Source of the DNA: Thermoplasmata archaeon
Lineage (GTDB): Archaea; Thermoplasmatota; Thermoplasmata; Lutacidiplasmatales; UBA184
Assembly: GCA_052325545.1 (NCBI GenBank)
Contig: JBKQUP010000034.1
Span: 33,450 to 97,449 of the forward strand
DNA: 64,000 nucleotides
Direction of reading: 5' to 3'
Below are positions 10,302 to 47,768 of this stretch, piece by piece. The notes under the pieces are model-generated. The model saw only the letters and a program-made list of their open reading frames with translations, was not told the origin of the DNA and did not search any database. The translations under genes were made by a program, and so were the position numbers. Each line of letters begins with the position of its first letter. The stretch's first letter is position 1.

Positions 10302-10465
10302 CGGTCGACCTGTGGTACGCCCGAACGGCGGTCCCTCAAAAAGCCCTCGCGTGCCCCGCCCGGGGCTTCCCGCGGAGGGAACTCCCCGACCGTTCGGAAC
10401 CTACGTTCGCGTCAGGCACGCGGCAGGTAGTTTTTTATTCCGGTCGACCGGCTTTGGACCAATCG

Positions 10466-16792: not shown

Positions 16793-16851
16793 CCTCCCGG
16801 GGACGGGCGACCGGGGATTAAGTTATCCCGGGCGGGACCAAGAAGGAAGGA

Positions 16852-16974
16852 GGCTGACAGCTTTCCGCGTTTCCCGTAGGCTCGCGCACTTCAGTACCGC
16901 GCGGAACGCCAGTGGGCTTAACTTCCGGGTTCGGAATGGGACCGGGTGTTTCCCCACCGCTTTGGCCGTCAGCC
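16852..16974 (-). rRNA. rrf: 5S rRNA (stand-alone)
   Basis: Minus strand GGCTGACGGCCAAAGC...CCCATTCCGAACCCGGAAGTTAAG...GCTGTCAGCC with complementary ends; TTAAATA box at 16997-17003. Confidence 0.97.
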
Positions 16975-16999
16975 GAGCGGTCGGACCGAAACCTCGTAT

Positions 17000-17512: not shown

Positions 17513-17571
17513 GCCCGGTGCGAGCGGTCGTCGCGGATAAGTACTCCGCGGAGTCGTGCCGCCCCGGTCGA

Positions 17572-18579: not shown

Positions 18580-18593
18580 ACGGGACCCGGCGT

Positions 18594-21383: not shown

Positions 21384-21490
21384 CCCGGCTTAGCTCAGAG
21401 GTAGAGCGGGGGACTGTAGGCGTGACTGCCGGGAATCCGGCAGCCCCCGTAGAGATCCTCAGGTCGCCTGTTCGAGTCAGGCAGCCGGGA
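21384..21490 (+). tRNA. tRNA-Tyr(GTA) with a 35-nt intron at 37/38 (21420-21454)
   Basis: C1-G72 acceptor CCCGGCT/AGCCGGG; anticodon GTA; hairpin intron; TTTATA box at 21353-21358. Confidence 0.96.
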
Positions 21491-21630: not shown

Positions 21631-21702
21631 TGCGGTTGTCGGGATTTGAACCCGAGTAGGTAGCTTGGGAAGCTACCGTCCTAACCGCTAGACCACAACC
21701 GC
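21631..21702 (-). tRNA. tRNA-Gly(CCC)
   Basis: GCGGTTG/CAACCGC acceptor, GTAGC-TTCCCAA-GCTAC anticodon arm, GGTTCAAATCC. Confidence 0.97.
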
Positions 21703-33398: not shown

Positions 33399-34121
33399 AT
33401 GGCCGAGAAGGAGTCCGGAGCGAAGAAGCCCGCCTTGGCCCGTACGGTCAAGGACAAGTGGCGCTCGAAGCACTGGTACAAGGTTCGGGCCCCTGGGCTC
33501 TTCCAACATGTCGAGCTCGGCGAGACGGTCGCGACCGAGCCCGAGCAGGTCGTCGGTCGGACCCTCGAGGCCACGCTGCCCGAGCTGTCGGGGTCGGGAG
33601 ATTCCGGCAAGGCCCACGTGAAGCTGCGCTTCCGTATCGAGCGGATCTCGGGCGAAGGGATCGCCGAGGCGAGGTTCGTCGGTCATGACCTCACGAGCGA
33701 TTACGTCCGGAGGCTCGCCCGCCGCAAGCGCTCGAAGATCGACCTCGCCCTCACGGTGACGACGAAGGACGGCGTCCAGATCATCCTGAAGCCGGTCGCG
33801 GTCGGGGAGCAGCGCCTCCAGACCCGCCTGCGCGCCGAGCTTCGCCACAAGATGGTCCAGATCCTCCTCGAAGAGGCCCAGCTGCGGACCTCTCCCGAGT
33901 TCGTCCGAGAGATGATCCAGGGGGACCTTTCGAAGGTCCTGGCCCACGGGGTGAAGACCCTCTACCCGCTCAAGAAGATCGAGATCCGGCGGTCGGAGGT
34001 CCTCGGAATGATCTCGGAAGAGATCCCGGTACCGGAGCCGACCGCGCTCCCCGAGCCGTCAACGCCACCCGAAGAGGCCACTGCCTCCGTGGTCGACGCG
34101 GGCGCGGGCCCGGCGGCGTAG
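33399..34121 (+). CDS. rps3ae: 30S ribosomal protein S3Ae (eS1)
   Basis: KDKWRSKHWYKVRAP, GHDLTSDYVRRL and LYPLKKIEIRR; TTTTAAG box near 33361. Confidence 0.96.
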   Translation: MAEKESGAKKPALARTVKDKWRSKHWYKVRAPGLFQHVELGETVATEPEQVVGRTLEATLPELSGSGDSGKAHVKLRFRIERISGEGIAEARFVGHDLTSDYVRRLARRKRSKIDLALTVTTKDGVQIILKPVAVGEQRLQTRLRAELRHKMVQILLEEAQLRTSPEFVREMIQGDLSKVLAHGVKTLYPLKKIEIRRSEVLGMISEEIPVPEPTALPEPSTPPEEATASVVDAGAGPAA

Positions 34122-34155
34122 TTCCGAAGGGCGCGAGATGACGCGTCCAATCCCT

Positions 34156-34257
34156 GTCGGAGTGGCTCAGCCCGGTAGAGCACGGGACTCATAGCGGGAC
34201 GCGTGTCGCGTCCCGGGAGATATCCTGGGGCCGGGGGTTCAAATCCCCCCTCCGACA
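34156..34257 (+). tRNA. tRNA-Met(CAT), probably elongator, with a 28-nt intron (34194-34221)
   Basis: GTCGGAG/CTCCGAC acceptor; CGGGA-CTCATA..A-TCCTG; GGGGG-TTCAAAT-CCCCC T-arm; intron hairpin CGGGACGCG-TGT-CGCGTCCCG. Confidence 0.95.
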
Positions 34258-34304
34258 TTTTGCGCCGATCTTTCGCCGAGAATTTGGGTCTCTTCCTTGC
34301 CCCG

Positions 34305-34346
34305 CCGGAAGACTTGAACTCTAGGGGTTCGCATCTTCCCTCCGGA
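34305..34346 (+). repeat. tRNA-Met-derived palindromic site, type B (R1)
   Basis: CCGGAAGACTTGAACTCTAGGGGTTCGCATCTTCCCTCCGGA. Confidence 0.6.
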
Positions 34347-34630
34347 AAGGGGTCCCTCGCGTGCACTGGGAACGGCATGCCACATGCAGAAACGAGGCGA
34401 GCTCATGCCGCCCGTGAGCCCACCGTCGTCACCCTGGGGAATCTTTCCCGTTTCGGACCGCGACGAGGTCTCTATCGGAATCGGGGAGTCTGTCCGCGCT
34501 GGACGGGAGAACCCACCCAGTTGTCCGAGCACGAGATACGGTGCCGTCGCGCCGGGGATTTACCGAGAGTCGGTTAAGCGAATGTAAAAGACTCTTGATT
34601 GCGTGTTCAGAGGATTGCTAAGGGGGTTGT

Positions 34631-35761
34631 ATGGAGCGAAGGCAGGGAGGATACTACGTCCGGCCGCTTGGCGAGCTTTGGGAGATGTGGAAGCCACGAG
34701 TGAAGGCGAACGGATGGCCATTCCCATACGCCAGGTACGAGGACGTGGAGAGAGTAATGGTCAGCCTCAGATCCTACGACAGGGACGAGTGGGCCACGGC
34801 CTTCAGCGCGGTCGCCAAGCCGTACGAGGAGAGGGCCACCGAGGCGGAGAAGAGAGGGGAGGCGAAGTTCGCGAAGGAGAACTACCTTCTTGCCTACCAG
34901 TACTACTACTTGGCCCGGTACCCCACCATCAACTCCGAGGGGAAGAGAGCCGCGTACAGGAAGTCGCAGGAGATGTTCCTGAAAGCCGCGCGCTACTTCG
35001 ACGTGCCCGTCGAGAGAGTGGAGATTCCGTTCAGCGGCAAACCGGGAGAAGGCAGCACCGTAGTCGGATACCTCAGAGTACCCAAGGTCGATTCGGCGCC
35101 CTTCCCTCTAATCTTGAGCTGGGGAGGCATAGACGGCTACAAGGAGGAGCACCTCAACGACTACGCACTGAAGAACGGGATTGCGACTCTCGCGATAGAC
35201 GGTCCGGGCGTGGGAGACTCGCCGCTCAAGGGTTCTGAGGACGCCGAGCGGCTGTTCGGCGCGGTGCTGGACTGGCTTGCGGTGAGAAAGGGGATCGATG
35301 CTCGGAGGCTTGGAGTATGGGGAATGAGCACGGGAGGGTACTGGGCGGTCAAGGTAGCGCACGTCTTCAAAGACCAGATCGCATGTGCGGTTAGCCAAGG
35401 CGGGCCCGTGCACTACGGGTTCCAGCCCGAGTGGTTCCCACAGCAGGAGCGCGGGGAGTATGCCTTCGAGGTGTTCGACACGCTCGCGTTCGCGTTCGGG
35501 AAGTCCTCCCCCGAGGAGTATCTGGAGTTCGCCCCCAGGCTATCGCTCCTCACTCAGGGCATGCTCGATAGGCCATGCGCGCCCCTACTGCTGGTGAACG
35601 GGCTGCACGACACACTGTTCCCAATAAAGGACTACTACCTGTTGCTCGAGCATGGGAGCCCAAAGTGCGCGAGGTTCTATGACGTGGGGCACATGGGCTT
35701 TACCCGCGAGACGTTCGCTATGATCATGGGTTGGATGATAGACCGGCTGAAAGCGAAATAA
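34631..35761 (+). CDS. Alpha/beta hydrolase, FrsA/2,6-dihydroxypseudooxynicotine hydrolase-like
   Basis: GGIDGYKEE, IDGPGVG, GMSTGGY, NGLHD and GHMG motifs. Confidence 0.88.
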   Translation: MERRQGGYYVRPLGELWEMWKPRVKANGWPFPYARYEDVERVMVSLRSYDRDEWATAFSAVAKPYEERATEAEKRGEAKFAKENYLLAYQYYYLARYPTINSEGKRAAYRKSQEMFLKAARYFDVPVERVEIPFSGKPGEGSTVVGYLRVPKVDSAPFPLILSWGGIDGYKEEHLNDYALKNGIATLAIDGPGVGDSPLKGSEDAERLFGAVLDWLAVRKGIDARRLGVWGMSTGGYWAVKVAHVFKDQIACAVSQGGPVHYGFQPEWFPQQERGEYAFEVFDTLAFAFGKSSPEEYLEFAPRLSLLTQGMLDRPCAPLLLVNGLHDTLFPIKDYYLLLEHGSPKCARFYDVGHMGFTRETFAMIMGWMIDRLKAK

Positions 35762-36036
35762 GTAGGGTTCGAGGCGCTGAACCCTCTTGTTACGGCGGCC
35801 GGGGATAACTAAGCTCCCTACGACACGGGAGAATGCGCAACGGCTCCTCGGCGACGGGGCTGGTGCCTTGGCTCTCGGCCCGGAGTGTGAGCTTTTCGGG
35901 ACATTTCCTGAAATAGGGCGGGTTCTGTAATCCAAGGAGTTGGTCCGACTACTTGGACCGATTCCTGCCGCCGGGGTTGTGTAATGGGAAGGGTTCCCCG
36001 TCGGTCCTGACGAGGCGCTGGAACCCCGAAATTGTT

Positions 36037-36077
36037 GATACTTGAACCCTGGGAGGGTTCGAATACCCCCTCCGACA
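36037..36077 (+). repeat. tRNA-Met-derived site, type B (R2), closest copy of the tRNA 3' end
   Basis: 36053-36077 GAGGGTTCGAATACCCCCTCCGACA matches 34233-34257 at 22 of 25 positions; hairpin TTGAACCCT-GGG-AGGGTTCGA. Confidence 0.85.
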
Positions 36078-36126
36078 CTCGGTCCGGACGAAGCCGGCCA
36101 ATTCGGGCCAAGAACAGGATGGAACC

Positions 36127-36534
36127 GTGAGGAAAGTCACCCCAAAATCGACGGCCGACGTGGATTCTTACATCGCTCGATGTCCCGCCAAGGTCCGTGG
36201 CAAGCTCGTCCGGGTCCGCAACGCCATCCGTGCCGCCGCACCGGATGCAACGGAGGTGATCAGCTACCAGATTCCCGGATACGCCTACCCCGGCCACGAG
36301 CACAACGGGATGTTCGCGGGGGTTGGCCTTCAGAGCAACCACATCGGCCTGTACGTCCGACCGCCTACGATCGAGAATCACCGGAGGGAGCTGGCCGGCT
36401 ACAAGACCACCAAGTCGGCGGTCCATCTTCCGCTGGATCGTGAGATTCCGACCCGACTTATTCAGATGCTGGTTCGAGCGAGCGTGCGGGTGATGAAGGA
36501 GAGGGGCCGCAAACGCTCGCCCGGGCTCGCATGA
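36127..36534 (+). CDS. DUF1801 (YdhG-like) protein
   Basis: DVDSYIA, IRAAAPDATEVISYQIP, HIGLY and YKTTKSAV. Confidence 0.88.
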   Translation: MRKVTPKSTADVDSYIARCPAKVRGKLVRVRNAIRAAAPDATEVISYQIPGYAYPGHEHNGMFAGVGLQSNHIGLYVRPPTIENHRRELAGYKTTKSAVHLPLDREIPTRLIQMLVRASVRVMKERGRKRSPGLA

Positions 36535-36646
36535 GAAGCGGCAACGAAGGCGCTTGACGGGGATTGGAGGATCCTAGGAAGGTTCCCCTTCGACGCCTTC
36601 CGCCGAATTACCGCCCAGGAGTGACGACGGGTGGCCCCTCACATCC

Positions 36647-36661
36647 GGGGAATTTGAACCC
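36647..36661 (+). repeat. Partial site: inverted T-arm half (R3)
   Basis: GGGGAATTTGAACCC, reverse complement GGGTTCAAATTCCCC. Confidence 0.55.
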
Positions 36662-36726
36662 GCAGGCACCCCTCGCCGAGAGGATGTTCTAGCGTACCTA
36701 AGAGAAGGGCGGCGGAGAGAACGGAC

Positions 36727-36975
36727 TCACCCCTGGTGGACTTCGTGGATCTCGTCGGCGACGAGACCGTGGGCTTCCTTATGCACGCGAGCCGCGGCCT
36801 CCGGGTTTGGCGCCTCAACTAGGCAGAAGATCGTCTCGGTCTTCTCGTCGACCCAGTAGCTCCGATAATTCACACCGTGCTTGCCCTGTACCTTGAGGTC
36901 CTTCGCGTGGGCTTCAGCGACGCCCTTCGCGGTAACGCCTTTCACGTTGCGGTGCACATCCATGTAGACGGGCAT
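36727..36975 (-). CDS. DUF4242 / SCO4226-like metal-binding protein
   Basis: MPVYMDVH...AEAHAKDL...YWVD...FCLVEAP...VHKEAHG. Confidence 0.9.
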   Translation of the reverse strand: MPVYMDVHRNVKGVTAKGVAEAHAKDLKVQGKHGVNYRSYWVDEKTETIFCLVEAPNPEAAARVHKEAHGLVADEIHEVHQG

Positions 36976-37136
36976 AGCGGCCGCAAACTGCGTTCGAAAG
37001 AAAAACCTTCCGATTTCATGAAGCCGGCTCGTTGTCCGATAAGATGGCGTGAAGTCGCCGACTGGAGCGATTTCTAACGAAGAGGACGTGCGGGGGGACG
37101 CTGCTCCGCGGCCCGAGATCGCCTCGCGGCCGCCCT

Positions 37137-37201
37137 GTGGGGGGTTTGAAGAGTTCAGTAGTTCCCCCTCCGACTCCTCCTCGGGGGGTTCAAATCCTCC
37201 C
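37137..37201 (+). repeat. Type A palindromic site (R4) followed by a second T-arm copy
   Basis: GTGGGGGGTTTGAAGAGTTCAGTAGTTCCCCCTCCGAC, then GGGGGTTCAAATCC (exact 14-bp tRNA match) at 37184-37197. Confidence 0.85.
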
Positions 37202-37354
37202 AAGATCCGCGCTTTCGGCGTCCGACCGCTTCCGATGCCAAACCCACCCCTTACTCATCCCCGTCGTTAGAAATCCGTCCGAACCGTCGGGCCATAGACT
37301 CCCGTCGCACAAAGCGCGGTTTGTGAGGTGCGGTCGCAACCTGTCAAGGAGGCA

Positions 37355-38527
37355 CTACTGCGCGCATTGGTCATCGACGTCGGCGGTCAGAGAGGAACCG
37401 GACCCGGTGGGTGCCCTACTGGTGTTACCAGGCGTCGGCCCCGGTCGGCGGTCAAACCAACGTCGACTCCACAGGGCAACATAGACGAGCGAAAGGAGCA
37501 CCGGGACCTCAACCAGGGGTCCGATGACCGAGGCGAAGGCGACCTGCGAGGCCACCCCGAAGACTACTACCGCCACCGCGATCGCGAGCTCGAAGTCGTT
37601 GCTTGCCGCAGTGAACGCAACGGTCACCGACTTCTCGTACCCGAAGTTGAGCCAGCGGCTGCCCAGGAATGCCAGCGCCCACATACCGAGGAAGTACGCG
37701 AGGAGCGGCGCGACCACTCGAAGGACCGTGAAGGGAAGGGTAGTGATGGAGAGACCTTGGATTGCAAACATCACTACGATCGTGAAGAGAAGCCCCCAAA
37801 GCGTCAGCCGACTCACGGAGGGAGCGAACCGCTCGTCGTACCACGCTCGTCCCTTCCATCGGGCGAGACCAAGCCGGCTGACCAAGGCAGCCGCCAGTGG
37901 AACTCCGAGGAAGACGAGCACGCTGAGCGCCACTGTGGTGGTGTCTACCGAGATTGCTTGCGAGGGCAGGTGGAGCCACGCGGGCAGGTAGACCAGGTAG
38001 AAGACCGCGAGCCCGGCGTAGGCTAGGATTTGGAACACGGCGTTCAGCGCGACCAGCACGGTCGCGTACTCCGCGTCCCCACCCGCGAGTTGGTTCCAGA
38101 CCAGTACCATGGCGATGCACCGGGCCAATCCGACTAGGATGACTCCCGTCCTTAGGAGCGGCGCGTCGGGGAGGAGCGTCCACGCTAGCGCGAACATAAA
38201 CGCTGGGCCCACGACCCAGTTCAGAACAAGCGGGAAGACCGTCGATCGCCACCCTCGGGTGACCTCGCGAATCCGGCCGTACCTCACTCGAGCCAGAATC
38301 GGATACATCATCAGAAGCAGGCCGATGGCGATCGGTACAGAGACCGACTGGATTTGCCAGAGGCCGAGCGCGGTGCCGATTCCCGGCCACAGACGACCCA
38401 AGGCAAGTCCGGCGACCATAGCCGAAATGACCCAGACGGGAAGGTATCGGTCCACGACGTCGAGCTGCTGGCTCGGGCGAGGGGCCGTCGAAAGAGGTCC
38501 TTCCAGTGATTCTGTGGCCACGCTCAC
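37355..38527 (-). CDS. acr3: Arsenite efflux transporter Acr3
   Basis: AIGLLLMMYP, LNWVVGP, GLARCIAMV, SNDFELAIAVA and GPLVEVP motifs. Confidence 0.96.
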   Translation of the reverse strand: MSVATESLEGPLSTAPRPSQQLDVVDRYLPVWVISAMVAGLALGRLWPGIGTALGLWQIQSVSVPIAIGLLLMMYPILARVRYGRIREVTRGWRSTVFPLVLNWVVGPAFMFALAWTLLPDAPLLRTGVILVGLARCIAMVLVWNQLAGGDAEYATVLVALNAVFQILAYAGLAVFYLVYLPAWLHLPSQAISVDTTTVALSVLVFLGVPLAAALVSRLGLARWKGRAWYDERFAPSVSRLTLWGLLFTIVVMFAIQGLSITTLPFTVLRVVAPLLAYFLGMWALAFLGSRWLNFGYEKSVTVAFTAASNDFELAIAVAVVVFGVASQVAFASVIGPLVEVPVLLSLVYVALWSRRWFDRRPGPTPGNTSRAPTGSGSSLTADVDDQCAQ

Positions 38528-38575
38528 CTCAAGCTACGACTTCGAGCGGAGAGGCGTGGGTGACGCGGGAGGCAC

Positions 38576-39037
38576 TCATGCCGATCTCGCGGAGAGGTCC
38601 TCGGCTACCCCTTTCCGGCGGCGGTCCGACACGACGAGCTCGGTCCGGAGGCGCTTCACGTTCCCAGCGATTCGGTCGCGAACCTGTCGGAACCCGTCGT
38701 CGTCCAAGGACACAGGGTCGGGGAGCGACCAGTCCCTGAGTTCCAGGGTCTTGAGCCGGGCCGGACAGGCCGCGTCATCAAGACACCCCATTGTTACCCG
38801 GACCCGGGCGATGTCCATCATCTCAGGGGTTAACAGCTGAGGCGGGTGCGGGGGGAGGTCCAACCCTATCTCGCGGAGCATCGGTCCGGTCCGTGGATTC
38901 GCAGACGTTGCTGGACTCGTTCCAGCTGAGATCGCGGTCCACCCCTCCGGGGAATTGGCGTTGAACATTGCCTCGGCCATCAGCGAACGGCCGGAGTTCC
39001 CGACGCAGATGAACAGAACGACCTTGGATTCCGTCAT
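38576..39037 (-). CDS. arsC: Arsenate reductase, LMW-PTP family
   Basis: CVGNSGRS P-loop, MGC....CP and DWSLPDP; ars operon context. Confidence 0.9.
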   Translation of the reverse strand: MTESKVVLFICVGNSGRSLMAEAMFNANSPEGWTAISAGTSPATSANPRTGPMLREIGLDLPPHPPQLLTPEMMDIARVRVTMGCLDDAACPARLKTLELRDWSLPDPVSLDDDGFRQVRDRIAGNVKRLRTELVVSDRRRKGVAEDLSARSA

Positions 39038-39858
39038 GGATGGGGACCTCTGGGTTTCGTTGCACGAACCTCGCCCGGCACGACCCCGATCTCATCCTGG
39101 GCGCGCAGAGACTCCACTGAGGGACCCCCTCCGAGAACCGAGACCTCGATGAACTCGAACCCTGCCGAGCGCAAACGGTCCGTCACCTCGTCCACGGTCA
39201 ACGCTCCTGAAGAACAGGAGGCCCACCGCTCTGGGTCCTTCCGCATTTCTTCGGAAATGGGACGTGTCGCGAGAACGTCCGCGACCGCGAGCCGCCCGCC
39301 GGGCCGTAGGACCCGAAACGCCTCACGATAGACCTGTCCCTTGTCGGGAACGAGGTTAATCACACAGTTCGAAAGGACGACATCGACCGAAGCGTCCGCC
39401 ACCGGGAGGTGTTCGATCTCGCCCAATCGAAACTCAACGTTACTTCGGCCGCTCGACCGGGCGAGGTCGCAGGCCCGGGCGACCATCTCGGGCGTCATGT
39501 CCACTCCGATCACGCGGCCCGTTGGGCCGACATAGCCGGCGGCAAGGAAGCAGTCGACACCCGCACCGCTGCCAAGGTCCAGCACCACTTCGCCCGGGGC
39601 CAGTGGCACGAGTCGCGAGGGATTCCCGCACCCGAGCCCGAGATTCGAGCCTTCCGGGATGGTCGCCAACTCTGAGGGAGTGTAACCAGTGGAGCAGCAA
39701 GCGGCTTCAGCCTCCGGGGATGCTGTGCCCTGCGAGGCACCGGCGCAGGAGGATTCGCTTCCCCCGCAGCAGTTACCGCTTCCCGCGCGGGCAAGTGCGC
39801 CATACCGATCTCTCACAGACTGTCGCATCACCTCTCCGTTTGCTTCGGATTCGCTCAT
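39034..39858 (-). CDS. arsM: Arsenite S-adenosylmethionine methyltransferase
   Basis: N-terminal CC pairs, LGLGCGNP, DLGSGAG and SNCVINL. Confidence 0.95.
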   Translation of the reverse strand: MSESEANGEVMRQSVRDRYGALARAGSGNCCGGSESSCAGASQGTASPEAEAACCSTGYTPSELATIPEGSNLGLGCGNPSRLVPLAPGEVVLDLGSGAGVDCFLAAGYVGPTGRVIGVDMTPEMVARACDLARSSGRSNVEFRLGEIEHLPVADASVDVVLSNCVINLVPDKGQVYREAFRVLRPGGRLAVADVLATRPISEEMRKDPERWASCSSGALTVDEVTDRLRSAGFEFIEVSVLGGGPSVESLRAQDEIGVVPGEVRATKPRGPHP

Positions 39859-40223
39859 GGGACCTCCGCCAGGGCACCCGGCCTGAGCCGGTAGTACATC
39901 CACTTCCCGTGCCGTCGGGTTGTTACGAGGCCAGCGGAAGAGAGTACAGACATGTGGTGGCTCACGGTGGCGTGGGTCACGCCAAGCGCGGCTTGAATCT
40001 CGCAGGCACAGAGCTCTCCTTCTCGACCAAGGATCGCAACGGCCGTCAACCGCTGCGCATCTGAAAGCGCCCGAGCGCGCGCGAGGGCCTTCGCGAACCC
40101 GCTTCCCTTCGCGACCTGCTTGCCCATTCCCTGGTAGCGCGGGAGACAACCAGCACCGTCCGAACCAGTCAGTCTTCCCAACCGGCCGACGAGGCCGGTC
40201 TCGGGCTTGGATGACGCCATCAT
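39855..40223 (-). CDS. arsR: ArsR/SmtB As(III)-responsive repressor
   Basis: ALSDAQRL, ELCACEI and TVSHHMSVL; start at 40223 or 40241. Confidence 0.92.
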   Translation of the reverse strand: MMASSKPETGLVGRLGRLTGSDGAGCLPRYQGMGKQVAKGSGFAKALARARALSDAQRLTAVAILGREGELCACEIQAALGVTHATVSHHMSVLSSAGLVTTRRHGKWMYYRLRPGALAEVP

Positions 40224-40269
40224 GTCGATGCAGGTCGACACAGTATATGTAGATATCCATCGACATATA
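40223..40269. promoter_or_regulatory. Probable ArsR operator(s)
   Basis: TATATGTAGAT-ATCC-ATCGACATATA (40244-40269) and TGTCGA-N6-TCGACA (40223-40240) at the arsR start. Confidence 0.65.
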
Positions 40270-40372
40270 TGCTCAGATTATCCGGAGTTCCGCCGTCGCC
40301 GGGTTGTTCGTAGACAACAGACGGTCGACCCGGGGTGGAGGTTTAAGGTCGAATGAGATGATCGAGGATCGA

Positions 40373-41230
40373 ATGATTTCGCAAGCGGAGAAGGCCGAAG
40401 CGTTCCGCGCCCTGCATCATGGAGGCCGTGCGCTCATCCTTCCGAATGCGTGGGACGTCCCCAGCGCGCGGGTATTCGAGGAGGCCGGTTTCCCCGCGGT
40501 TGCGACCTCCAGTGCGGGACTCATGGTTTCCCTGGGATATCGGGACGGAGAGGAGATGCCCCGACGCGAATTGGCGGCGGCGGTTTGGCGAATTGCGACG
40601 AAGCTCTCCGTTCCCCTGAGCGCCGACGTGGTCGCGGGGTACGGCCGCACTCCTCGCGAAGTGACCGCAACGGTTCGGATGATGCTCGCTTCCGGGGCGG
40701 TTGGCATCAACTTAGAGGATCGGGTTCCCTCGGGCCAGGGAATGTATCCCGATACGGTCCAGGTCCGGAAGATCGTGGCAATTCACCGCCTTGGAAGATC
40801 GGTGGGAATCCCTCTGGTGATCAACGCTCGGACCGACGCGCTTCGGCTCGCCCCCGGTGATGACGAGGAACGGCTTCGCGAGGCCATACGTCGTTCGATC
40901 GCGTACCGTGACGCGGGAGCGGATTGTGTCTACCCTATGGGCTTGACCGACCCCCAATCCATCTCGACGTTTGTCGGTGCTCTCCGGTGCCCGGTCAATG
41001 TGATGGTCCGGAAGGGACTCCCTCCGATCGCGGAGCTGGAGAAGCTGGGCGTGAAGCGAGTGAGCTTTGGCCCTTCCGCATCGTATGCGGCTATGGGACT
41101 GTTAAGACGAGCAAGCCTCGAGATCATCGCGCACGGCACGTACGGTTCGTTGCTGGACGGCGCAATCACTTTCGATGAGCTCAACCGTCTTGCCGCGCCG
41201 AAGGACTCCGAAAGCGACCCTCACAGTTAG
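40373..41230 (+). CDS. Isocitrate lyase/PEP mutase family protein
   Basis: PNAWD, ATSSAG, GINLED, INARTD and AGADCVY; TTTAAG box near 40342. Confidence 0.92.
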   Translation: MISQAEKAEAFRALHHGGRALILPNAWDVPSARVFEEAGFPAVATSSAGLMVSLGYRDGEEMPRRELAAAVWRIATKLSVPLSADVVAGYGRTPREVTATVRMMLASGAVGINLEDRVPSGQGMYPDTVQVRKIVAIHRLGRSVGIPLVINARTDALRLAPGDDEERLREAIRRSIAYRDAGADCVYPMGLTDPQSISTFVGALRCPVNVMVRKGLPPIAELEKLGVKRVSFGPSASYAAMGLLRRASLEIIAHGTYGSLLDGAITFDELNRLAAPKDSESDPHS

Positions 41231-41249
41231 CGGTGGATCTACCGCCGCC

Positions 41250-41291
41250 GTGGGGGATTTGAAGATTTCAATAGTTCCCCCTTCCGACATT
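41250..41291 (+). repeat. Type A palindromic site (R5)
   Basis: GTGGGGGATTTGAAGATTTCAATAGTTCCCCCTTCCGACATT; extra half-site GGGATTTGAAACC at 41343-41355. Confidence 0.85.
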
Positions 41292-41403
41292 CTTAGGTGA
41301 CTTGTCACCGAGAAGCGGCGACGTCTGACCATTTGTGTGCTAGGGATTTGAAACCGAAAACGCTCCGGTGATAGACGAGGGCGGCTCTTTCCCTCGGCAG
41401 CGG

Positions 41404-42096
41404 TTACCTCGAAGGTCGTTGGGCCCCAGAGGCTGTTGGATTGTCGGGGATGGGAGTAGCCCGACGAGGGGGCCACCCGGGCCCGAAGACACCGGCGATC
41501 TGGAGTAGTAGGTAGGCGACCACGAACAGCACGGTCGCGACCAGAAGGATGTCGATATAGCGGAAGTACGAAGAGACGGCCGTCCAATTGGAACGGAGTA
41601 TCATCCCGGCGTACACCAAGGCGAGGGTGAAGGGAATCGAACCGAGCAACGTGTACGCCCCGAAGCGGACAGGCTTCATCCGGGCCGTCCCCGCAGGGTA
41701 GGAGATGTAGGCACGCACAACGGGTACGAGACGCGCGACGGCGACCGTGAGTTCCCCCCGGCGGGCAAAAAATCGGTCCATCCGTTCGAGATGGCGGGCT
41801 TCCAGTCGAAGACGGCCGATGCCGAACCCCGTGATGCGCTCGCGCCACAAGCGGCCGACGGCGTACGCGGCGAAAGAGCCGACCAGTCCGCCGGCCAAAG
41901 CGGCCAAGAGCGATCCTCCGAGCGAGAACGTCCCTTCCGCCACCAGAAAGCCGGTGAACGGAAGGATGATCTCGGAGGGTATGGGAGGTAACCCGAAGCT
42001 TTCGACCACCATCAAGGCGAAGAGGCCCGGTAAGCCGACCGTGGTTAGGACGGTGGTGATGAACTCGGCCACGCTGCCGATGAGCGAGAACGTCAC
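41404..42096 (-). CDS. DedA family membrane protein
   Basis: ESFGLPPIPSEIILPFTG and ARLVPVVRAYISYPAG. Confidence 0.93.
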   Translation of the reverse strand: MTFSLIGSVAEFITTVLTTVGLPGLFALMVVESFGLPPIPSEIILPFTGFLVAEGTFSLGGSLLAALAGGLVGSFAAYAVGRLWRERITGFGIGRLRLEARHLERMDRFFARRGELTVAVARLVPVVRAYISYPAGTARMKPVRFGAYTLLGSIPFTLALVYAGMILRSNWTAVSSYFRYIDILLVATVLFVVAYLLLQIAGVFGPGWPPRRATPIPDNPTASGAQRPSR

Positions 42097-42193
42097 AGTG
42101 GAGCCCCTGGTCGCGACGACCCGCTCTACGACGTTTGGCTTAAAGACTCCAACCCGCGGCTTTGGGGGGGCCTCGGTCGTCCCACTCGGTGGT

Positions 42194-42276
42194 GCGGGGG
42201 ATTTGAAGAACTCAGTAGTCCCCCCTCCGGCGTTCGATTTGGGAACCCTCAGGGGAATCGGATTCCCCCTCCGGAA
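42194..42276 (+). repeat. Type A site (R6) immediately followed by a type B site (R7)
   Basis: GCGGGGGATTTGAAGAACTCAGTAGTCCCCCCTCCGGC, then GATTTGGGAACCCTCAGGGGAATCGGATTCCCCCTCCGGAA. Confidence 0.8.
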
Positions 42277-42493
42277 GAGGGTGGGTTTCCCGACGGGAGA
42301 GGTCGGTCTCAGCGATCTACTCCGAGGCGCTCCGGCCCACGGTCCTGCTCCTGTCGATGGTCAGGACGCCGCCTTACTGGGAGCGAAATGCACGCGGCCT
42401 AGGACCTGATAACGCGGACGTTAGCAGACCCGCGGACGACCACTCCTCTGTTATATCCCCCCGGTCCGCTCACATCGATGCGAAGGGTGCATT

Positions 42494-42886
42494 ATGACCG
42501 GATGGCACAAGGCAGCGGACGCGAAGGAGTTGCCCCAAGGAACGATGAAAGGAATCGAGGTCGCGGGAGCGAAGGTCCTGTTGGTGCACGGGTCTTCGGG
42601 AATCCGTGCGTTCGAGGACCGGTGTGGTCATATGTCTGCCCCCGTCAGCATCGGTACTTTCAAGAGCGGCGTACTCAAGTGTGCGCTCCATGCCGCGGTG
42701 TTCGACGCCGAGACCGGGGCGGTTCGTGGACCGCCCCAGATGCACGCACCGCCGGCCGGGCAACTTCCTCCGGAACTAATGGAAATGATGGCCGCCATGG
42801 GACAAATCATGGCCCAAATCCGCTGCGACCCACTTCGGCCTTTTCCGGTCGCGGTTGAAGGTGGCCAGATCATGGTCTACGTCTGA
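42494..42886 (+). CDS. Rieske [2Fe-2S] ferredoxin
   Basis: CGH...CALH ligand motifs. Confidence 0.9.
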   Translation: MTGWHKAADAKELPQGTMKGIEVAGAKVLLVHGSSGIRAFEDRCGHMSAPVSIGTFKSGVLKCALHAAVFDAETGAVRGPPQMHAPPAGQLPPELMEMMAAMGQIMAQIRCDPLRPFPVAVEGGQIMVYV

Positions 42887-43076
42887 AGGACCGGTGCCTA
42901 CCTTTGGTTTTGAAGGGAGCGCCGAACGCGCTCTGGACTCGGATCGTTGATCCCGGATTCGGATGGAGGGGGGAATCTCGAGTTTTCAGCGGGGGCGAGC
43001 TCCCTTCGCCCAGGACACCGCCGATTCCGGTACCTGCTTTACGATCCGCCGAGCCCGATAGACATGGAGGTGTAAA

Positions 43077-43481
43077 TTGGCCAAAAAAGTGACGCCCAGC
43101 TGGGACAGCGCCGGAGCTGAGGTGCTCCGAACGAACGACTTCGAGGGTACGCGTCTCAAGCGCGACGGGACCTACGCGGTTTGCTTTGGGGCCACGTGGT
43201 GCCCCCCGACTCGAGCCTTCGTCCCTAAGTTCGTCGCCCGAAATGGACGTCTCCCAGCCAACCTCGCCATCGCGGATATCACGGAGATGAATGACCCACT
43301 GTGGGACTCGTTCCGGATCAAGATCACTCCTACAATCCTCGTTTTTCGGGATGGGGGAACGGTAGGCCGGTTCGATGGCCGGCGGTTCGTAGGTCTCCGG
43401 GATTCGGACTTGGACCGGCTGACGGACCTGCTGGGAAGGCTAGGCGGTCCGGTGCGCCCCGAGGCGGTCTCCCCTCCCTAG
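43077..43481 (+). CDS. Thioredoxin-like protein (WCPPT)
   Basis: FGATWCPPT and cis-Pro TPTILVFRDG; TTG start after GGAGGTG. Confidence 0.82.
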   Translation: MAKKVTPSWDSAGAEVLRTNDFEGTRLKRDGTYAVCFGATWCPPTRAFVPKFVARNGRLPANLAIADITEMNDPLWDSFRIKITPTILVFRDGGTVGRFDGRRFVGLRDSDLDRLTDLLGRLGGPVRPEAVSPP

Positions 43482-43761
43482 GAACCGAACGCCCCGATGC
43501 GGCGGGTACTCCCCCCGCAGCCGGTTCGAGACGGACCGGTGCTGAGGCGGGAGACCCGTAAGTCGAGGGTTCGAGTCGATTTCCAACCGAGGGCGGTCCG
43601 GTCGGGAGAGCCTCTGCCGAAGGATTCGATGGTTCACGCCGAGAGATAGGAGAGTTAACCAGTGAGGCTGGCCGTTCCGGAGAGACCTTTCGATTCGGGG
43701 ACGGTCGGAGTGATCGGTCGCGACCCCACCGAGCGGCGGCTCCCCGGAGGCGGGGTGGAGG

Positions 43762-43974
43762 CTACTTGGGGTCCTCAGTTGGTGGTTCGGTCCACTCTCG
43801 CATCGGTGTCCGCCGGATCCCCGCAGCCCGCGCAAGGGCGTTCTTCGTCCCTTCCTTGGCCACGTGGGGCGCGTCGGCGACATCAATCTTGACGTCCGTG
43901 CCAATCCCCCCCAATGCCCTTCGCATCTCGTGTAGGTGCTCTCGGAATCGCGGTCGGTCAGCTTCGTCGGTCAT
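43762..43974 (-). CDS. Small hypothetical protein, short paralog of 29415-29849
   Basis: FREHLHEMRRA...GTKNALARAAGIRRTPMREW. Confidence 0.8.
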   Translation of the reverse strand: MTDEADRPRFREHLHEMRRALGGIGTDVKIDVADAPHVAKEGTKNALARAAGIRRTPMREWTEPPTEDPK

Positions 43975-44204
43975 GGTTCCGGGCCGGTGGGTCCGAGCTT
44001 CTGGTCCAAAAACCTTGAGGTGGACGGGAAGCAAGCGAGCGGGAGCTCTTCGCGGTCGGCACGGGTCCTGGTATGAGTCGGTGCGAGGGTCTGGATCTCG
44101 AACCCCCCAAAGTAGAGACGCGGCAAGTTCCGCCTAGAGTTCAATGGCGCGCGGTTCGGTCCGCTTCAAGAGCTCGCATACATTTCCTCACCTCCCGGAA
44201 TAGG

Positions 44205-45211
44205 GTGAACGAAGTTTCAACTCCGGCCGTCGGCCCCACCCGTACGGGGAAGGCATGGGTCTTTGAACGCTACGGATCCCCCGAGGTCCTCGAACTCCGA
44301 GATGTCCCGGTTCCAGCGTTCCGGGACGAGGACGAGGTACTGGTGCGGGTGCACGCCGCCTCCGTAAACCCTAGCGATCGGCATTCGCTGAAACCCCCTT
44401 TCATCTTCCGGAGAGGACAGGGATTCCTCCGACCGAAAATAGGACGACCCGGGGGCGACCTGGCCGGGCGAATCGAGGTGGTCGCCAAGAACGTAACGAA
44501 GCTACACGTTGGGGACGAGGTCTTCGGCGTGGGCCGTGGCGCCTTTGCGGAGTATGCGGTCGCCGACCAGACCCAGGTGGTCCTGAAACCCGCCCCGCTG
44601 ACGTTCGAGCACGCCGCCGCCGTGCCCATCGCCGCCGTTACGGCCCTCCAGGGCCTCCGCGATACGGCTCAGGTCCGGCCGGGCCAGCGGGTCTTGATCA
44701 ATGGTGCGTCGGGCGGCGTCGGCACCTTCGCGGTTCAAATCGCCAAGTCGCTCGGTGCTAAGGTAGACGGGGTCTGCAGCACCCGGAACGTGGATTTGGT
44801 CAAGTCCCTCGGAGCCGACCGGGTCTTCGATTACTCGCGAGAGGACTTCACCAAGAGCGGCCAGCGCTACGATGTCATCTTCGATACTCAGCTTAACCCT
44901 CCTTGGCGGCGTACCGGGGTATCCTTACTCCCCACGGACTGCTCGTGGTAGTCGGCGCAGGTTCAGGGGAGATCGGCCCAGCGCTCCGCCGACTCTTCAA
45001 GACCCTGGTCTGGACGCGCATTGTCGGGCCGAGAACGAAGTTCTTCATCGCGTCGATCAAGGAGGGAGACCTGGTCGTCCTCAGGGAGCTGCTCGAGGCC
45101 GGTAAGGTGACCCCGGTGATCGACCGGCGCTATCCCTTGAACCAGGTCCCGGACGCGATCCGGTATCTGGCGGAAGGACACGCTCGAGGAAAGATCGTCG
45201 TAACGGTCTAA
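44205..45211 (+). pseudogene. Zinc-independent MDR/quinone oxidoreductase-like gene with a 1-nt frameshift near 44898
   Basis: VRVHAASVNP and NGASGGVG in one frame; GKVTPVIDRRYPL...GHARGKIVV in another. Confidence 0.8.
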
Positions 45212-45322
45212 CGCGGGCCTCGCGTCGCGCCGTACGCGTATCCGCAACGACAGAGCCCCTACGCATCCGGCTCCGGATGCGCGTGTTGTGGACCCTTTGC
45301 GCCGCCGTCAGGATGCCCGACG

Positions 45323-45829
45323 TCAACCGAGAGGGTTCCCGCAGGATGCGCAGAACCTCACGTCCGGAGCCACCGCCCGGCCGCACTTCGGACAGATCCG
45401 CTGCGGCTGCACATACACGACGGTGGGAACGGGGGGAGTAGGTTTGTGGGCGATTCCAAGAATCCCCCCGATGAGAGCCAGGATGAACCCGATGAGGAGT
45501 CCCCCCAATCCGACCAGGCTGACGATCGAGAAGACCAGGACCAGCACCCCGAACATGGTGTGCTGTTGTGGATTCACATAGAGGAGGATCCCGGCGATCA
45601 TGATGATGAGACCGGAGAGGATCTCGACCCCCCCGATGATGAGAACGCCCCCGCCGAAGACGAAGCTCGATATCGCGACCCCGACCGCGAAGAGCACCAG
45701 CCCCCAGAGGAGGATGAAGATCCCTCCGAGGAGAGAGAGAATAAACGCCGCGGTGGGTTTCACCAAGGGGGCGGGCGGAGGGACCATGGGCGGGACACCA
45801 AACTGGGACCCATACGGAGGGGCTGCCAT
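45323..45829 (-). CDS. Four-TM membrane protein (DUF6114-like) with C-terminal zinc ribbon
   Basis: AAFILSLLGGIFIL...; CPKCG...FCASCG. Confidence 0.85.
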   Translation of the reverse strand: MAAPPYGSQFGVPPMVPPPAPLVKPTAAFILSLLGGIFILLWGLVLFAVGVAISSFVFGGGVLIIGGVEILSGLIIMIAGILLYVNPQQHTMFGVLVLVFSIVSLVGLGGLLIGFILALIGGILGIAHKPTPPVPTVVYVQPQRICPKCGRAVAPDVRFCASCGNPLG

Positions 45830-45968
45830 GCCCTGCCTTACAACCGCTCCACTATGACTGCCTTGCGTCGGAGGTCAGTATCCGCCATCCCGAACCCGGT
45901 GCGTTGGGGACCGACTCTCCCGAGGAGCGAGAACAAGGTCGATAGAGTGAAGTCGGGCTGACTGAGAG

Positions 45969-46007
45969 TATTAACCCCCCTTCTTGCATCATTGCATCAT
46001 CCTGCAA
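45969..46007 (+). promoter_or_regulatory. Promoter with probable repressor operator for the dsrE-hdr operon
   Basis: TATTAA at 45969, then TTGCATCA twice and palindrome TTGCA-N6-TGCAA (45992-46007). Confidence 0.55.
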
Positions 46008-46050
46008 GTGAGCAACTGCGGGGGAATGGAACCAACCTAGGAGTCAGAAG

Positions 46051-46617
46051 ATGTCGGGAGCAATCGCAGCCACAACCAAGTCCGCCTTGCCCAAAGACCT
46101 CGGGCTTCCCACGGAACTCACGGTCCCGTCCGGGTCGGCCCCGAGCGGTCTGTCGATGGTGGTCTTCTCGGGGGACCTCGACAAGGTCCTCGCGGCGATG
46201 ATCATCGCGAACGGCGCCGCGGCGATGGACCTGCCCGTGAACATTTTCTTCACGTTCTGGGGACTCAACGTCCTCCGCATCGGAGGGCCGGTCCAGGTCC
46301 AGGGAAAGAAGACGATGACCGAGGGAATGTTCGGCCGCATGATGCCCCGCGGACCGGACCACCTCCAGATCTCGAAGATGAAGATGGGGGGTCTCGGGAC
46401 CCGGATGATCAAGAAGGAGATGGGAAAGAAGCACGTCATGAGCCTTCCGAATCTGATCCGCTCGGCTCAGGAACAGGGCGTGCGATTCATCGCGTGCACG
46501 ATGTCGATGGACCTCATGGGGATCCACAAGGAAGAGCTCATCCCGGGGATCGACTACGGGAACGTGGGCTCGTTCATCGACGCGGCCGACCGAAGCCGGA
46601 TGACACTGTTCATCTGA
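46051..46617 (+). CDS. DsrE/DsrF/DrsH-like (DsrE2) sulfur-transfer protein
   Basis: FSGDLDK, FFTFWGL and ACTMSMDLMGI. Confidence 0.92.
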   Translation: MSGAIAATTKSALPKDLGLPTELTVPSGSAPSGLSMVVFSGDLDKVLAAMIIANGAAAMDLPVNIFFTFWGLNVLRIGGPVQVQGKKTMTEGMFGRMMPRGPDHLQISKMKMGGLGTRMIKKEMGKKHVMSLPNLIRSAQEQGVRFIACTMSMDLMGIHKEELIPGIDYGNVGSFIDAADRSRMTLFI

Positions 46618-46632
46618 GCACAACGGACGTCA

Positions 46633-47061
46633 ATGACGGTTCGACGACGGGTCCCGATCCGGGGGCTCGACCTCGAAGGCTTCGAGCTCGAAGCCGACAC
46701 GATCCGCGTGCTTGCCAACCCGAAACGGCTCATGATCGTGGACCTGCTCGGGCGGGGCCCGAGCACGGTCACCGAGATCGCCGATGGGTTGAACCTCTCC
46801 CTACAGAACGCCTCGCAGCACCTGCGCGTGATGAAGGATCGAGGCATCGTCCGGGCGCGTCGGGACGGCCGTGAGGTCCGCTACGCGCTCCGGAGCCCCG
46901 TTCTCTCGGAGAGCTGCCAGCTGGTCCGGCGAGCGCTGCTCGCGGAGACACGGTTCCGACCGGGCCGCTTCGGCGACGCCGACGAGCCGACAACCCCTTC
47001 GAACCCGCGTCGGACCCGCGAATCCCGACGGGTCCGCATTCCTGTCTCAGTCGCCGGTTGA
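46633..47061 (+). CDS. ArsR/SmtB family regulator
   Basis: LANPKRLMI and SQHLRVM; single C-terminal Cys. Confidence 0.9.
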   Translation: MTVRRRVPIRGLDLEGFELEADTIRVLANPKRLMIVDLLGRGPSTVTEIADGLNLSLQNASQHLRVMKDRGIVRARRDGREVRYALRSPVLSESCQLVRRALLAETRFRPGRFGDADEPTTPSNPRRTRESRRVRIPVSVAG

Positions 47062-47079
47062 ATCACGGAGGAAGGAAGA

Positions 47080-47334
47080 ATGAATGTAGACGAGTTGAAA
47101 GGTCTGAAGGTGGACAAGGTCGTAGACGCGCGCGGGACCGCGTGCCCGGGCCCGCTCTTGGATGCCAAACGGGCGATGGGAAGTGTCCCGATGGCCGGGG
47201 TCATGGAAGTGATCTCGTCCGACGTCGGCACCACGCTGGACATACCGCTCTGGGCCTCCAAGGTCGGGCACGAGTACCTCGGCATGCTCACCGAGCCCGG
47301 CCTCTGGCGGATGTACGTAAAGCGCGGCAAGTGA
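47080..47334 (+). CDS. tusA: TusA family sulfurtransferase
   Basis: VDARGTACPGP motif. Confidence 0.93.
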   Translation: MNVDELKGLKVDKVVDARGTACPGPLLDAKRAMGSVPMAGVMEVISSDVGTTLDIPLWASKVGHEYLGMLTEPGLWRMYVKRGK

Positions 47335-47768
47335 GGGTCTCGGTGCCCGTCCCCCCCGACCGCCGGCCACCGCCGAGGATCCTCGTCTTCTCGACGAACG
47401 CGATCTCGGACATGGCCATCGACCTGGCCGGCAGTTCGCACCTCGATTACTCGCCGACCGTGCAGGTGATCGCCCTGCCGTGTTCGAGCGGGATCAACCC
47501 GACGTGGATTGCCCACGCTATTACCGCGGGGTTCGAGGGGGTATTCGTCGCGGCGGACGGGGGCGAATGCGCCTACATACCGGATTGCACGGCCCGCACG
47601 GGACGTCTCGTCGAGCAGGCCCAGAGCCTGCTCACCAAGAACGGGTCCGATGCGCGGCGCGTCAAGATGGGGGCCCTCTGTTCCGTCTGCTCCGACGCGT
47701 TCGTCAACCACATGAAACAGTTTGGTCGGGAGCTCGAGGAACTTCGAGCCCCCGTCGCGGCGGCGTAG
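47331..47768 (+). CDS. mvhD: MvhD/FlpD-like Fe-S subunit (variant Cys pattern)
   Basis: ILVFST...IDLAG, LPCSS, DGGECAY and CSVC. Confidence 0.85.
   Translation: MRVSVPVPPDRRPPPRILVFSTNAISDMAIDLAGSSHLDYSPTVQVIALPCSSGINPTWIAHAITAGFEGVFVAADGGECAYIPDCTARTGRLVEQAQSLLTKNGSDARRVKMGALCSVCSDAFVNHMKQFGRELEELRAPVAAA

Follow-up and report, generated by a model that had tools for sequence, protein, structure and literature searches.

Repeat sites behind a tRNA-Met gene as probable joints of integrase-less gene cassettes in a genus of Thermoplasmata

What kind of element leaves the same short site, ending like a tRNA gene, between successive groups of accessory genes? The question is raised by a stretch of 64,000 nucleotides (the window) from a Thermoplasmata archaeon (GenBank assembly GCA_052325545.1, contig JBKQUP010000034.1, positions 33,450 to 97,449 of the forward strand), in which three copies of a ~38-nt repeat, the type A or R sites, lie on the plus strand at 37137-37174 (R4), 41250-41288 (R5), and 42194-42231 (R6). 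The genome holding the window (G000) is an archaeal metagenome-assembled genome (MAG) of 1.68 Mb in 37 contigs with 68% G+C. A scan of the window with a 30-nt degenerate pattern, allowing up to three mismatches, returns exactly these three copies, as the original prediction had them in place and sequence, with none in 100 dinucleotide shuffles (mean 0.00, maximum 0); the same pattern matches the whole genome exactly three times, and a reversed-pattern control not at all. A sequence-only covariance model of the site built from 11 copies (the R1 model) scores R4 at 38.6 bits (E 1.6e-10), R5 at 45.1 bits, and R6 at 37.8 bits. We consider it probable that the R sites are the attachment-site joints of cassettes that inserted serially behind a tRNA-Met gene and that carry no integrase of their own.

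The composition of the site is informative. R4, R5, and R6 are 84–86% identical to each other over 37 nt, and each closes a cassette (cassettes 1, 2, and 3, respectively). R4 consists of a left arm and a tRNA-identical core, CCCCCTCCGAC, and ends in CCCCCTCCGAC(A), which is the tRNA-Met gene's 3′ end and corresponds to the 3′ strand of the T-stem, the 3′ strand of the acceptor stem, and the discriminator; R5 and R6 are each one base off there, the core change in R6 giving CCGGC. The overlap of the copies with the tRNA is confined to these last 12–14 nt, and the remainder, including a GTAG, is common to the copies and absent from the tRNA. The left arm, GGGGGATTTGAA, reads as the tRNA T-loop plus T-stem in reverse complement; for R5 and R6 it is the exact reverse complement of the tRNA string TTCAAATCCCCC at 34238-34249. 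The original prediction had described such a left arm, a right-arm TAG lacking from the tRNA, and copies closer to each other than to the tRNA, and all of this holds, the first point for R5 and R6. It had also favored a propagated element over independent decay of tRNA copies, and the conservation of the non-tRNA part over 61 sites (E<0.01), which come from 18 genomes and 20 loci, argues for this. The family falls into two sequence subtypes, in the first of which (subtype 1) the C-run is one C shorter than that of the tRNA; yet all tRNAs seen are intact, so that the exchange point would have to lie to the right of the C-run, in or near CTCCGAC.

The tRNA-Met(CAU) gene that provides the anchor lies at 34156-34257 on the plus strand (Rfam RF00005, 57 bits); it has an intron in the anticodon loop, and its 3′ end, GGGGGTTCAAATCCCCCCTCCGACA, resembles an attB. 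ARAGORN calls it (as tRNA-Met(cat), 34156-34257) when run with the intron option, and misses it in a default scan, which reports two tRNA-Gly genes only in the window; Rfam adds two further tRNAs, for a total of four. Just 5′ of it is the conserved core gene for ribosomal protein S3Ae (33399-34121, plus strand; Pfam PF01015, E 2e-54). Elsewhere, S3Ae and a ~102-nt intron-containing tRNA are found upstream on the same strand in 12 of the 12 arrays whose start is in hand; among the other 8 of the 20 loci, 6 begin at a contig end, continue another locus, or were fetched too short upstream. All 61 sites are oriented in the direction of the tRNA and none opposite to it. In the window, a low-GC island (34258-45900) starts at the tRNA 3′ end, with a G+C fraction of 0.60–0.65 compared with 0.68–0.72 in the flanking core, and its open reading frames (ORFs) have a third-position G+C (GC3) of 0.69–0.80 versus ~0.9 in the core. 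The G+C content recovers near 46–47 kb, and homology to the related genome G043 resumes at ~45.9 kb (high-scoring segment pair at 15948-19187 of the G000 array).

Two further modules accompany the site. The 3′ flank of the tRNA (34259-34357, plus strand) is a ~97-nt module, F, delineated in an alignment of 13 flanks and recovered by nhmmer (G000 array 4260-4358, E 2.5e-13); it is conserved across the genus and itself contains a degenerate R-like site at F positions ~48–96. F recurs at an offset of +1 after at least 20 R sites, is partial after R5, and is reduced to remnants after R4 and R6. On the other side, R is immediately preceded at 9 sites by a 305-nt non-coding block, U, whose end coincides with the R start; U is partial at others, including R4. 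The ~38-nt copies of the original prediction are thus real, but they form part of a larger site that runs into F and at those 9 places has U upstream. Arrays contain up to three U copies, for example L048:153-455, 7815-8115, and 10230-10534; L046:989-1293 and 3253-3558; and L052:6976-7280. U has no consistent ORF that would make it a gene, it corresponds to no Rfam family at E<=0.1 (there is one chance-level match at E 0.37), and as a structured RNA it shows 3 compensatory pairs among 102 predicted, with an unfavorable covariation term; a long arm of the attachment site and a gene for a small RNA are both conceivable identities. Taken with these neighbors, R has the appearance of a classical tRNA-gene attachment site, of which it would represent the core and the element-side arm.

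The original prediction hinged on further copies being found in relatives, and with the R1 model 39 of 149 genus genomes prove to have the site (E<=0.01; the tally includes the unpublished G148, which has no match). It is present in none of 140 genomes from a sample of the class outside the genus, and an exact-pattern search of 185,579 species genomes gives 22 matches, all titled Thermoplasmata MAGs. Metagenome contigs add 12 rows that represent 11 loci with 21 sites, all of the same array kind and without an integrase, so that the 20 genome loci and 11 metagenome loci make up the about 30 loci considered here. Spacing between sites ranges from 90 to 5336 nt (median 2147), with up to 10 sites per genome. 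A dispersed repeat of the repetitive extragenic palindrome (REP) or miniature inverted-repeat transposable element (MITE) type was also considered and rejected, as the three copies in G000 are all in the array, and those of other genomes are clustered and co-oriented. No consistent extra R-like (dif-like) site was seen outside the arrays in G000 or in the genus survey. Genomes without R have related features at the same place: in G002 (L066:1494-1560) and G005 there are T-arm-like remnants directly after tRNA-Met (in G005 on the reverse strand of L067 at ~1519-1640 and 3958-3977), and G005 has a plain partial tRNA copy 2.4 kb downstream. Because R-less genomes carry such remnants, the locus appears to be a genus-wide insertion hot spot with more than one type of site.

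If R sites are joints, then homology between loci should break at them. All of the genomes compared are MAGs of related species, and in an all-versus-all BLAST of their loci 131 of 955 block endpoints fall at R, in positions that account for 1.5% of the sequence (~9-fold enrichment), with 95 of 494 block ends lying 0–29 nt past the R end. Among 1240 inter-genome pairs drawn from 52 sites, none is homologous on both sides of R. We compared these pairs segment by segment, dividing the site into the left arm, the core, and the two parts of F (F1 and F2). In the 50 pairs that share the upstream unit the identities are 0.89 for the left arm, 0.92 for the core, 0.53 for F1, and 0.43 for F2; in the 8 pairs that share the downstream unit they are 0.76, 0.88, 0.70, and 0.77; and in the 594 background pairs that share neither side they are 0.74, 0.85, 0.45, and 0.42. 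Homology in upstream-only pairs therefore spans the left arm and core and then drops, whereas in downstream-only pairs it runs back through F and stops at the core, with the left arm at background, which together place the homology switch within the 13-nt core. Junction alignments break at the same point. At the level of sequence comparison, the left arm thus appears to move with the upstream cassette and F with the downstream cassette, with the crossover in the core.

The units between the sites recur in relatives in other company, and are missing or replaced exactly at the sites, in keeping with the precise absences that the original prediction had suggested looking for. The arsenic (ars) unit that lies between R4 and R5 follows the tRNA directly in G043 and follows an R site in G000, G151, and G130. 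In G151 the ars and phosphoenolpyruvate (PEP) mutase unit of G000 is present between two R sites (83.5% identity over 3831 nt, ending at R end −1 in both), and it is also between two R sites in G130. Cassette 1 (34.3–37.2 kb) and R4 are both missing from G043; in G130 the ars/PEP-mutase and DedA units are separated by an additional cyclase cassette with an R; and the DedA unit, which follows an R site in G043 and G130, is replaced by a DUF4760 unit in G151. The unit behind the tRNA of G137 is found behind an R site in G138, with homology starting 11 nt before the tRNA or R end, so that, to judge by these alignments, tRNA end and R core are interchangeable. The degree of similarity differs from that of the core genome in both directions. 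The G138 core (AAA-ATPase, S3Ae, and tRNA; ~2.5 kb) is 70–74% identical to other species, whereas the cassettes shared with G138 are 85–95% identical; conversely, the G000 ars cassette is 80–86% identical to genomes whose core is 90–92% identical. The cassettes therefore have a history apart from that of the core genome.

We propose the following scheme. A cassette would comprise, in order, an F leader of ~97 nt, its cargo genes, sometimes the 305-nt U, and the conserved ~27-nt left arm of R, with neighboring cassettes meeting in a 12–13-nt core, CCCCCTCCGAC(A), whose sequence is that of the tRNA gene end. Upon circularization the left arm, core, and F would be brought together as a single attachment site, and a crossover in the core, the partner being either the end of the tRNA gene or a resident R core, would insert the circle. 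Insertion at the tRNA would restore the tRNA gene and shift older cassettes outward, and excision followed by re-insertion could reshuffle their order. The recombinase would presumably act in trans, supplied by an unbinned plasmid or virus or by the host, or may no longer act. Site-specific recombination is thus the presumed cause of the junctions, with a circular intermediate and perhaps with activity to the present day.

Several observations weigh against this scheme, foremost the lack of a recombinase. The arrays and their surroundings, scanned as 180 ORFs called using a simple GC3 filter, contain no integrase or resolvase (no match to PF00589), and their sole transposase is a DDE enzyme of the IS630 type, present in G140 and G156. 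G000 encodes three tyrosine recombinases, all on contigs other than that of the array, and tblastn gives no match either to these in the 20 array loci or to a set of 11 tyrosine recombinases in the 11 metagenome loci. The non-Xer integrases of five array-rich genomes are not orthologous to each other, and all but that of G160 are off the array contigs. An integrase family of ~320 residues that is common in the genus shows no association with the arrays, being present in 22 of 39 R-positive and 47 of 110 R-negative genomes. The assembled contigs of four DNA runs, whose cover is fragmentary, show neither a circular form nor an empty site nor an excision joint, and no match to R was found on viral contigs. 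Anchoring also has exceptions: a second array in G138 begins with a truncated tRNA-Met copy rather than an intact gene, and a solo R site in G007 (L010:17566-17602) has no tRNA within the 40 kb fetched. Finally, the counts given above are drawn from related genomes and paralogous cyclase cassettes and are not independent, the cyclase paralogues inflating the pair counts.

Some of these points deserve further description. The second G138 array (L047:5026-9047; G138:C31, ~73–77 kb) consists of the truncated tRNA-Met 3′ copy with F followed by three R sites, and lies ~4 kb downstream of a tRNA-Leu(CAG) gene. In the DNA runs, a contig of run X11 joins position 33666 to 47407, skipping 13.7 kb and thereby about the whole island, but with a short side of just 21 letters and a start within the S3Ae gene this joint is unreliable, and probably reflects an artefact or another organism. 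Among recombinases, a XerA-type enzyme is the only one found in all five array-rich genomes, a serine recombinase is present in two of the five, and a Y1 transposase in none. Individual candidates fare poorly. The G160 integrase is 11 kb beyond the final R and has neither R nor F sites in its vicinity, and the integrase on G000 contig C20 has orthologues in only two other genomes. The ~320-residue tyrosine integrases are found in 69 of the 149 genus genomes (including G148), beside tRNA-Thr(TGT) or tRNA-Leu(CAA) and often at contig ends (e.g. L118:1017-1990 in G130:C15, L119:628-1600 in G150:C4, and L113:136-2186 in G151:C9), with no R, F, or U site near; they are ordinary integrative elements at other tRNA genes. 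Since such integrase and tRNA pairs do assemble, ordinary elements exist in the genus and the tRNA-Met arrays differ from them. No integrase-bearing partner at the array site itself was found in the 20 genome and 11 metagenome loci, although binning of MAGs may hide plasmids and viruses.

A stronger form of the proposal is that the locus is a native archaeal platform for integron-like gene capture, working without an integron integrase and with its enzyme encoded outside the array, so that cassettes circulate between species of the genus. For the platform's recombinase, candidates would be the XerA of the host and an integrase carried by an unbinned plasmid or virus. We put this forward tentatively, and equally tentative is its corollary that cargo-only cassettes with a dedicated site of ~140–440 nt (U, R left arm, core, and F) are captured, excised, and reshuffled at the array.

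With no recombinase in or near the arrays, an obvious question is whether homologous recombination alone could account for them, with U, R, and F serving as portable blocks of homology through which cassettes are swapped between cells without any site-specific enzyme. At 40 nt for R, ~97 nt for F, and 305 nt for U (up to ~440 nt together), the repeats have sufficient length, a further point against cassettes joined by site-specific recombination, and homologous recombination between tandemly integrated archaeal elements is cited as a route of module exchange (PMC8371274, in part). However, the switch is confined to the 13-nt core rather than scattered over U, R, and F; the left arm tracks the upstream unit and F the downstream unit; many R sites lack U and have only a partial F; and the core is the exact 3′ end of a tRNA, a hallmark of integrase attachment sites. 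The first placement of unrelated cargo between identical sites would also be left unexplained. We consider homologous recombination alone unlikely.

Slightly less likely again is that the R sites are fossil scars, the leftover attR ends of integrase-bearing plasmids or viruses that integrated serially at tRNA-Met, lost integrase and backbone, and are now immobile. Islands of this kind are described in Prochlorococcus, with tandem integration, scattered partial tRNA copies, and degraded elements (bioRxiv 10.1101/2020.12.28.424599, in part), and the arrays do include plain partial tRNA copies (B-type) as well as degenerate sites such as R6 and some F modules. The ~30 loci, however, contain no integrase fragment, and the units are small (median spacing 2.1 kb), many with one cargo gene. 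Conservation of R far exceeds that of its surroundings and of the cassettes: the median identity of R is 79% (832 pairs), compared with 28% in the 100 nt upstream and 26% at +101 to +200, and the cyclase cassette shared by G001 and G156 is 73.9% identical while its R sites are identical at 38 of 40 positions. Adjacency is never kept (0 of 1240 pairs), and some cassettes are much more alike between species than is the core. Small units, conservation of R, lost adjacency, and cassette likeness therefore all indicate continuing exchange rather than a fossil record.

The original prediction had a different emphasis, namely an imperfect hairpin with attC-like extrahelical bases on the folded strand, which would make the 38-nt site one that is recombined as folded single-stranded DNA in the manner of an integron. 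The R consensus is indeed an imperfect palindrome in which GTAG would be bulged, and the cassettes resemble those of integrons in size and cargo; moreover, clusters of attC sites lacking integron integrases (CALINs) are common and are found in Archaea too (PMC9668308, in part). The predicted single-strand folds of R4–R6 are nevertheless weak (−4.1 to −6.7 kcal/mol), and two of the three copies fold no better than shuffles (z-scores of −0.3 to −0.6 for R4 and R6; −2.2 to −2.4 for R5). RNAalifold retains only a 4-bp GGGG/CCCC stem with no compensatory pairs, and the proposed hairpin shows no covariation over 67 sites, with a score of 0.066 against 0.067 for shuffled alignments and 260 of 500 shuffles equal to or above the observed value. 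There is no IntI, no attC-type terminal motif is apparent in R by eye, a tRNA gene end anchors the array, and conservation extends ~97 nt past the palindrome. Of the hairpin, then, the palindrome stands and the fold does not, and the attC-like strand is not borne out, which makes an integron-type site very improbable. What is conserved in R is sequence rather than pairing, which fits a protein-binding site.

An RNA or regulatory role, as a terminator, a tRNA-like processing signal, or an operator duplicated along with genes, is the most improbable of the explanations: R often lies 100–170 nt upstream of a minus-strand gene (SCO4226-like, DedA, cyclases) or just after a plus-strand gene (PEP mutase) and resembles a T-arm, but it has no fixed relation to gene ends, is missed by the Rfam tRNA model, has no 5′ half and no splice that gives a T-loop with A58, and would leave the homology switch in the core, the tRNA anchoring, and the breakpoints unexplained. 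We also rejected R4–R6 as the 3′ half of a tRNA gene or pseudogene, or as a T-arm with a T-loop intron, since all three are missed by that model, no GTCGGAG 5′ strand is present upstream, and, as read from the sequence, no excision of the extra bases yields TTCRA at positions 54–58.

The cassettes of the window, on the reading that R sites are attachment-site joints, follow each other in the order tRNA, FrsA-like hydrolase, an unassigned stretch, SCO4226-like gene, R4, ars operon plus PEP-mutase/isocitrate lyase (ICL), R5, DedA, and R6. Cassette 1 encodes the FrsA-like alpha/beta hydrolase (34631-35761, plus strand; PF06500, E 3e-22) and an SCO4226-like small protein at 36727-36975 on the minus strand (PF14026, E 2e-23, matching residues 80–155 of ORF 36727-37203); the start near 36975 is a predicted one, the longest ORF reaching 37203. 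Between them, at 36053-36077 on the plus strand, a B-type site reproduces part of the tRNA-Met 3′ end and has a true T-arm (GAGGGTTCGAATACCCCCTCCGACA); it was found by exact core search and by a fuzzy match with three substitutions and belongs to repeat family D4/D9.

A fragment of U (U positions 3–68) lies 47 nt 5′ of R4 at 37026-37090 on the plus strand (nhmmer U profile, E 2e-5), and a second fragment is inverted at 37237-37313 on the minus strand (E 6e-3). These two inverted fragments make up a 34-nt inverted repeat, I1 (37064-37097 and 37247-37280; 74% complementary), with a perfect 12-nt core (GATTTCTAACGA and TCGTTAGAAATC), which flanks R4 and the T-arm remnant beside it and suggests a local inversion or rearrangement. 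The remnant, GGGGGTTCAAATCCTCCC (37184-37201, plus strand; family D4, 94% identical to the tRNA T-arm), is a truncated F/B site at the start of cassette 2 and aligns to the B site in the tRNA flank of G043.

Cassette 2 contains, on the minus strand, genes for the ACR3 arsenite carrier (37355-38527), ArsC (38576-39037), an ArsM-type methyltransferase (39034-39861), and ArsR (39855-40241), and on the plus strand a PEP-mutase/ICL-family enzyme (40304-41230), all assigned by Pfam; R4 and R5 thus bracket the ars/ICL unit, as the original prediction had it, and its placement of DedA between R5 and R6 is likewise correct. Cassette 3 starts with a partial F (F positions 7–71; 41296-41360, plus strand; nhmmer E 8e-10) at an offset of +1 from the R5 end, a member of family D2 that is 74% identical to the tRNA flank, and encodes the DedA/VTT-domain membrane protein (41404-42096, minus strand; PF09335). 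After R6 the second half of F (positions 57–98, including the B-like site) is matched weakly at 42237-42289 on the plus strand (nhmmer E 0.035), and repeats of families D8 and D9 there match the tRNA flank at 71–77%.

Cargo in other arrays is likewise typical of accessory genes, with genes on either strand, and includes cyclase-TPR and cyclase-AAA16-TPR paralogues, GNAT, glyoxalase, DinB, SnoaL, SRPBCC, CMD, DUF1801, DUF1330, DUF4760, methyltransferases, ChrB plus MFS, hydrolases, and others. Paralogous adenylate/guanylate cyclase-TPR and cyclase-AAA16(STAND)-TPR genes of 640–1100 codons dominate many arrays, one per cassette and transcribed toward the tRNA (L008:83-19229 and L053, both from G001; L046, L048, L050, L052, L056, L057, and L059), the G001 arrays having at least seven of these paralogues. 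This is a large signaling or defence-like family almost wholly confined to this locus. Elsewhere in the window, a 107-nt tRNA gene at 21384-21490 (plus strand; Rfam 52.9 bits), missed by ARAGORN, adjoins a tRNA-Gly(CCC) gene (21631-21702, minus strand) and, like tRNA-Met, probably carries an intron; a 5S rRNA gene lies at 16852-16973 on the minus strand (Rfam, 102 bits).

How do such arrays compare with known systems? Archaeal integrases favor tRNA 3′ ends (PMC8371274, in part), and in the haloarchaeal SNJ2 system the core, 14 bp at the tRNA-Met 3′ end, is flanked by conserved P and P′ arms (PMC5861418, in part). Like elements of the SNJ2 type, the arrays have an intact tRNA at one border and a 12–14-nt 3′ direct repeat at the other, conserved element-side arms beside the core, and inserted DNA of foreign composition (PMC5861418 and PMC8371274, in part). 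They differ in having up to 10 sites per genome, each with a left arm of palindromised T-loop sequence for which we found no description in the literature consulted. Unlike those elements, they also hold no integrase or accessory gene, and consist of cargo-only units of 0.1–5.3 kb rather than proviruses or plasmids of 10–20 kb.

Integrase-less elements that exploit host Xer recombinases at dif (IMEX), such as the CTX/TLC arrays of Vibrio, also pile up in tandem at one chromosomal site, but the target of the arrays is a tRNA gene end rather than dif. Cis-mobilisable elements (CIMEs) are known from the accretion arrays of streptococcal integrative and conjugative elements (ICEs). The arrays resemble CIMEs and tycheposon islands in being composed of modules free of recombination genes, with flanking attachment sites, in tandem at one site, and with older modules pushed outward, and they share with tycheposon islands an adaptive accessory cargo (bioRxiv 10.1101/2020.12.28.424599, in part). 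In CIMEs and tycheposons, however, some genomes have an integrase-bearing partner at the same site, of which there is none in the ~30 loci, and the repeats are plain partial copies of the target, whereas R is a distinct conserved type of site.

With integrons and CALINs the arrays share small co-oriented cassettes, each ended by a conserved recombination site, with spacing mostly below 4 kb, and a cargo of GNAT, glyoxalase, DinB, and SnoaL proteins. CALINs show that integrase-less arrays are common and that their cassettes can be moved in trans (PMC9668308, in part). In contrast to integrons, the arrays have no IntI, attI, or supported fold and are anchored at a tRNA end; cassette genes may lie on either strand, often preceded by an upstream region of their own, and some cassettes contain whole operons. 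Lacking both IntI and a structure-conserved attC, the arrays fail the defining tests of an integron. A literature search found no description of such arrays in Thermoplasmata, which does not prove that there is none in print. To our knowledge, gene flow in Archaea has so far been described for proviruses, plasmids, and bacterial-type integrons.

The combination of S3Ae, tRNA-Met, and R sites offers a practical marker for recovering the flexible gene pool of this genus from metagenomes. More speculatively, R's palindromised T-loop arm may be relevant to the link that has been proposed between attachment sites and disruption of tRNA genes. If the cassettes are still mobile, then an uncultured genus of soil archaea keeps its accessory genes in a single ordered exchange locus, among them genes for arsenic resistance and methylation, membrane proteins, the cyclase-TPR signaling or defence-like family, and detoxification enzymes. 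The question would then be which enzyme recognizes R, and a tRNA-anchored, integrase-free cassette array would constitute a further route of gene flow for the Archaea.

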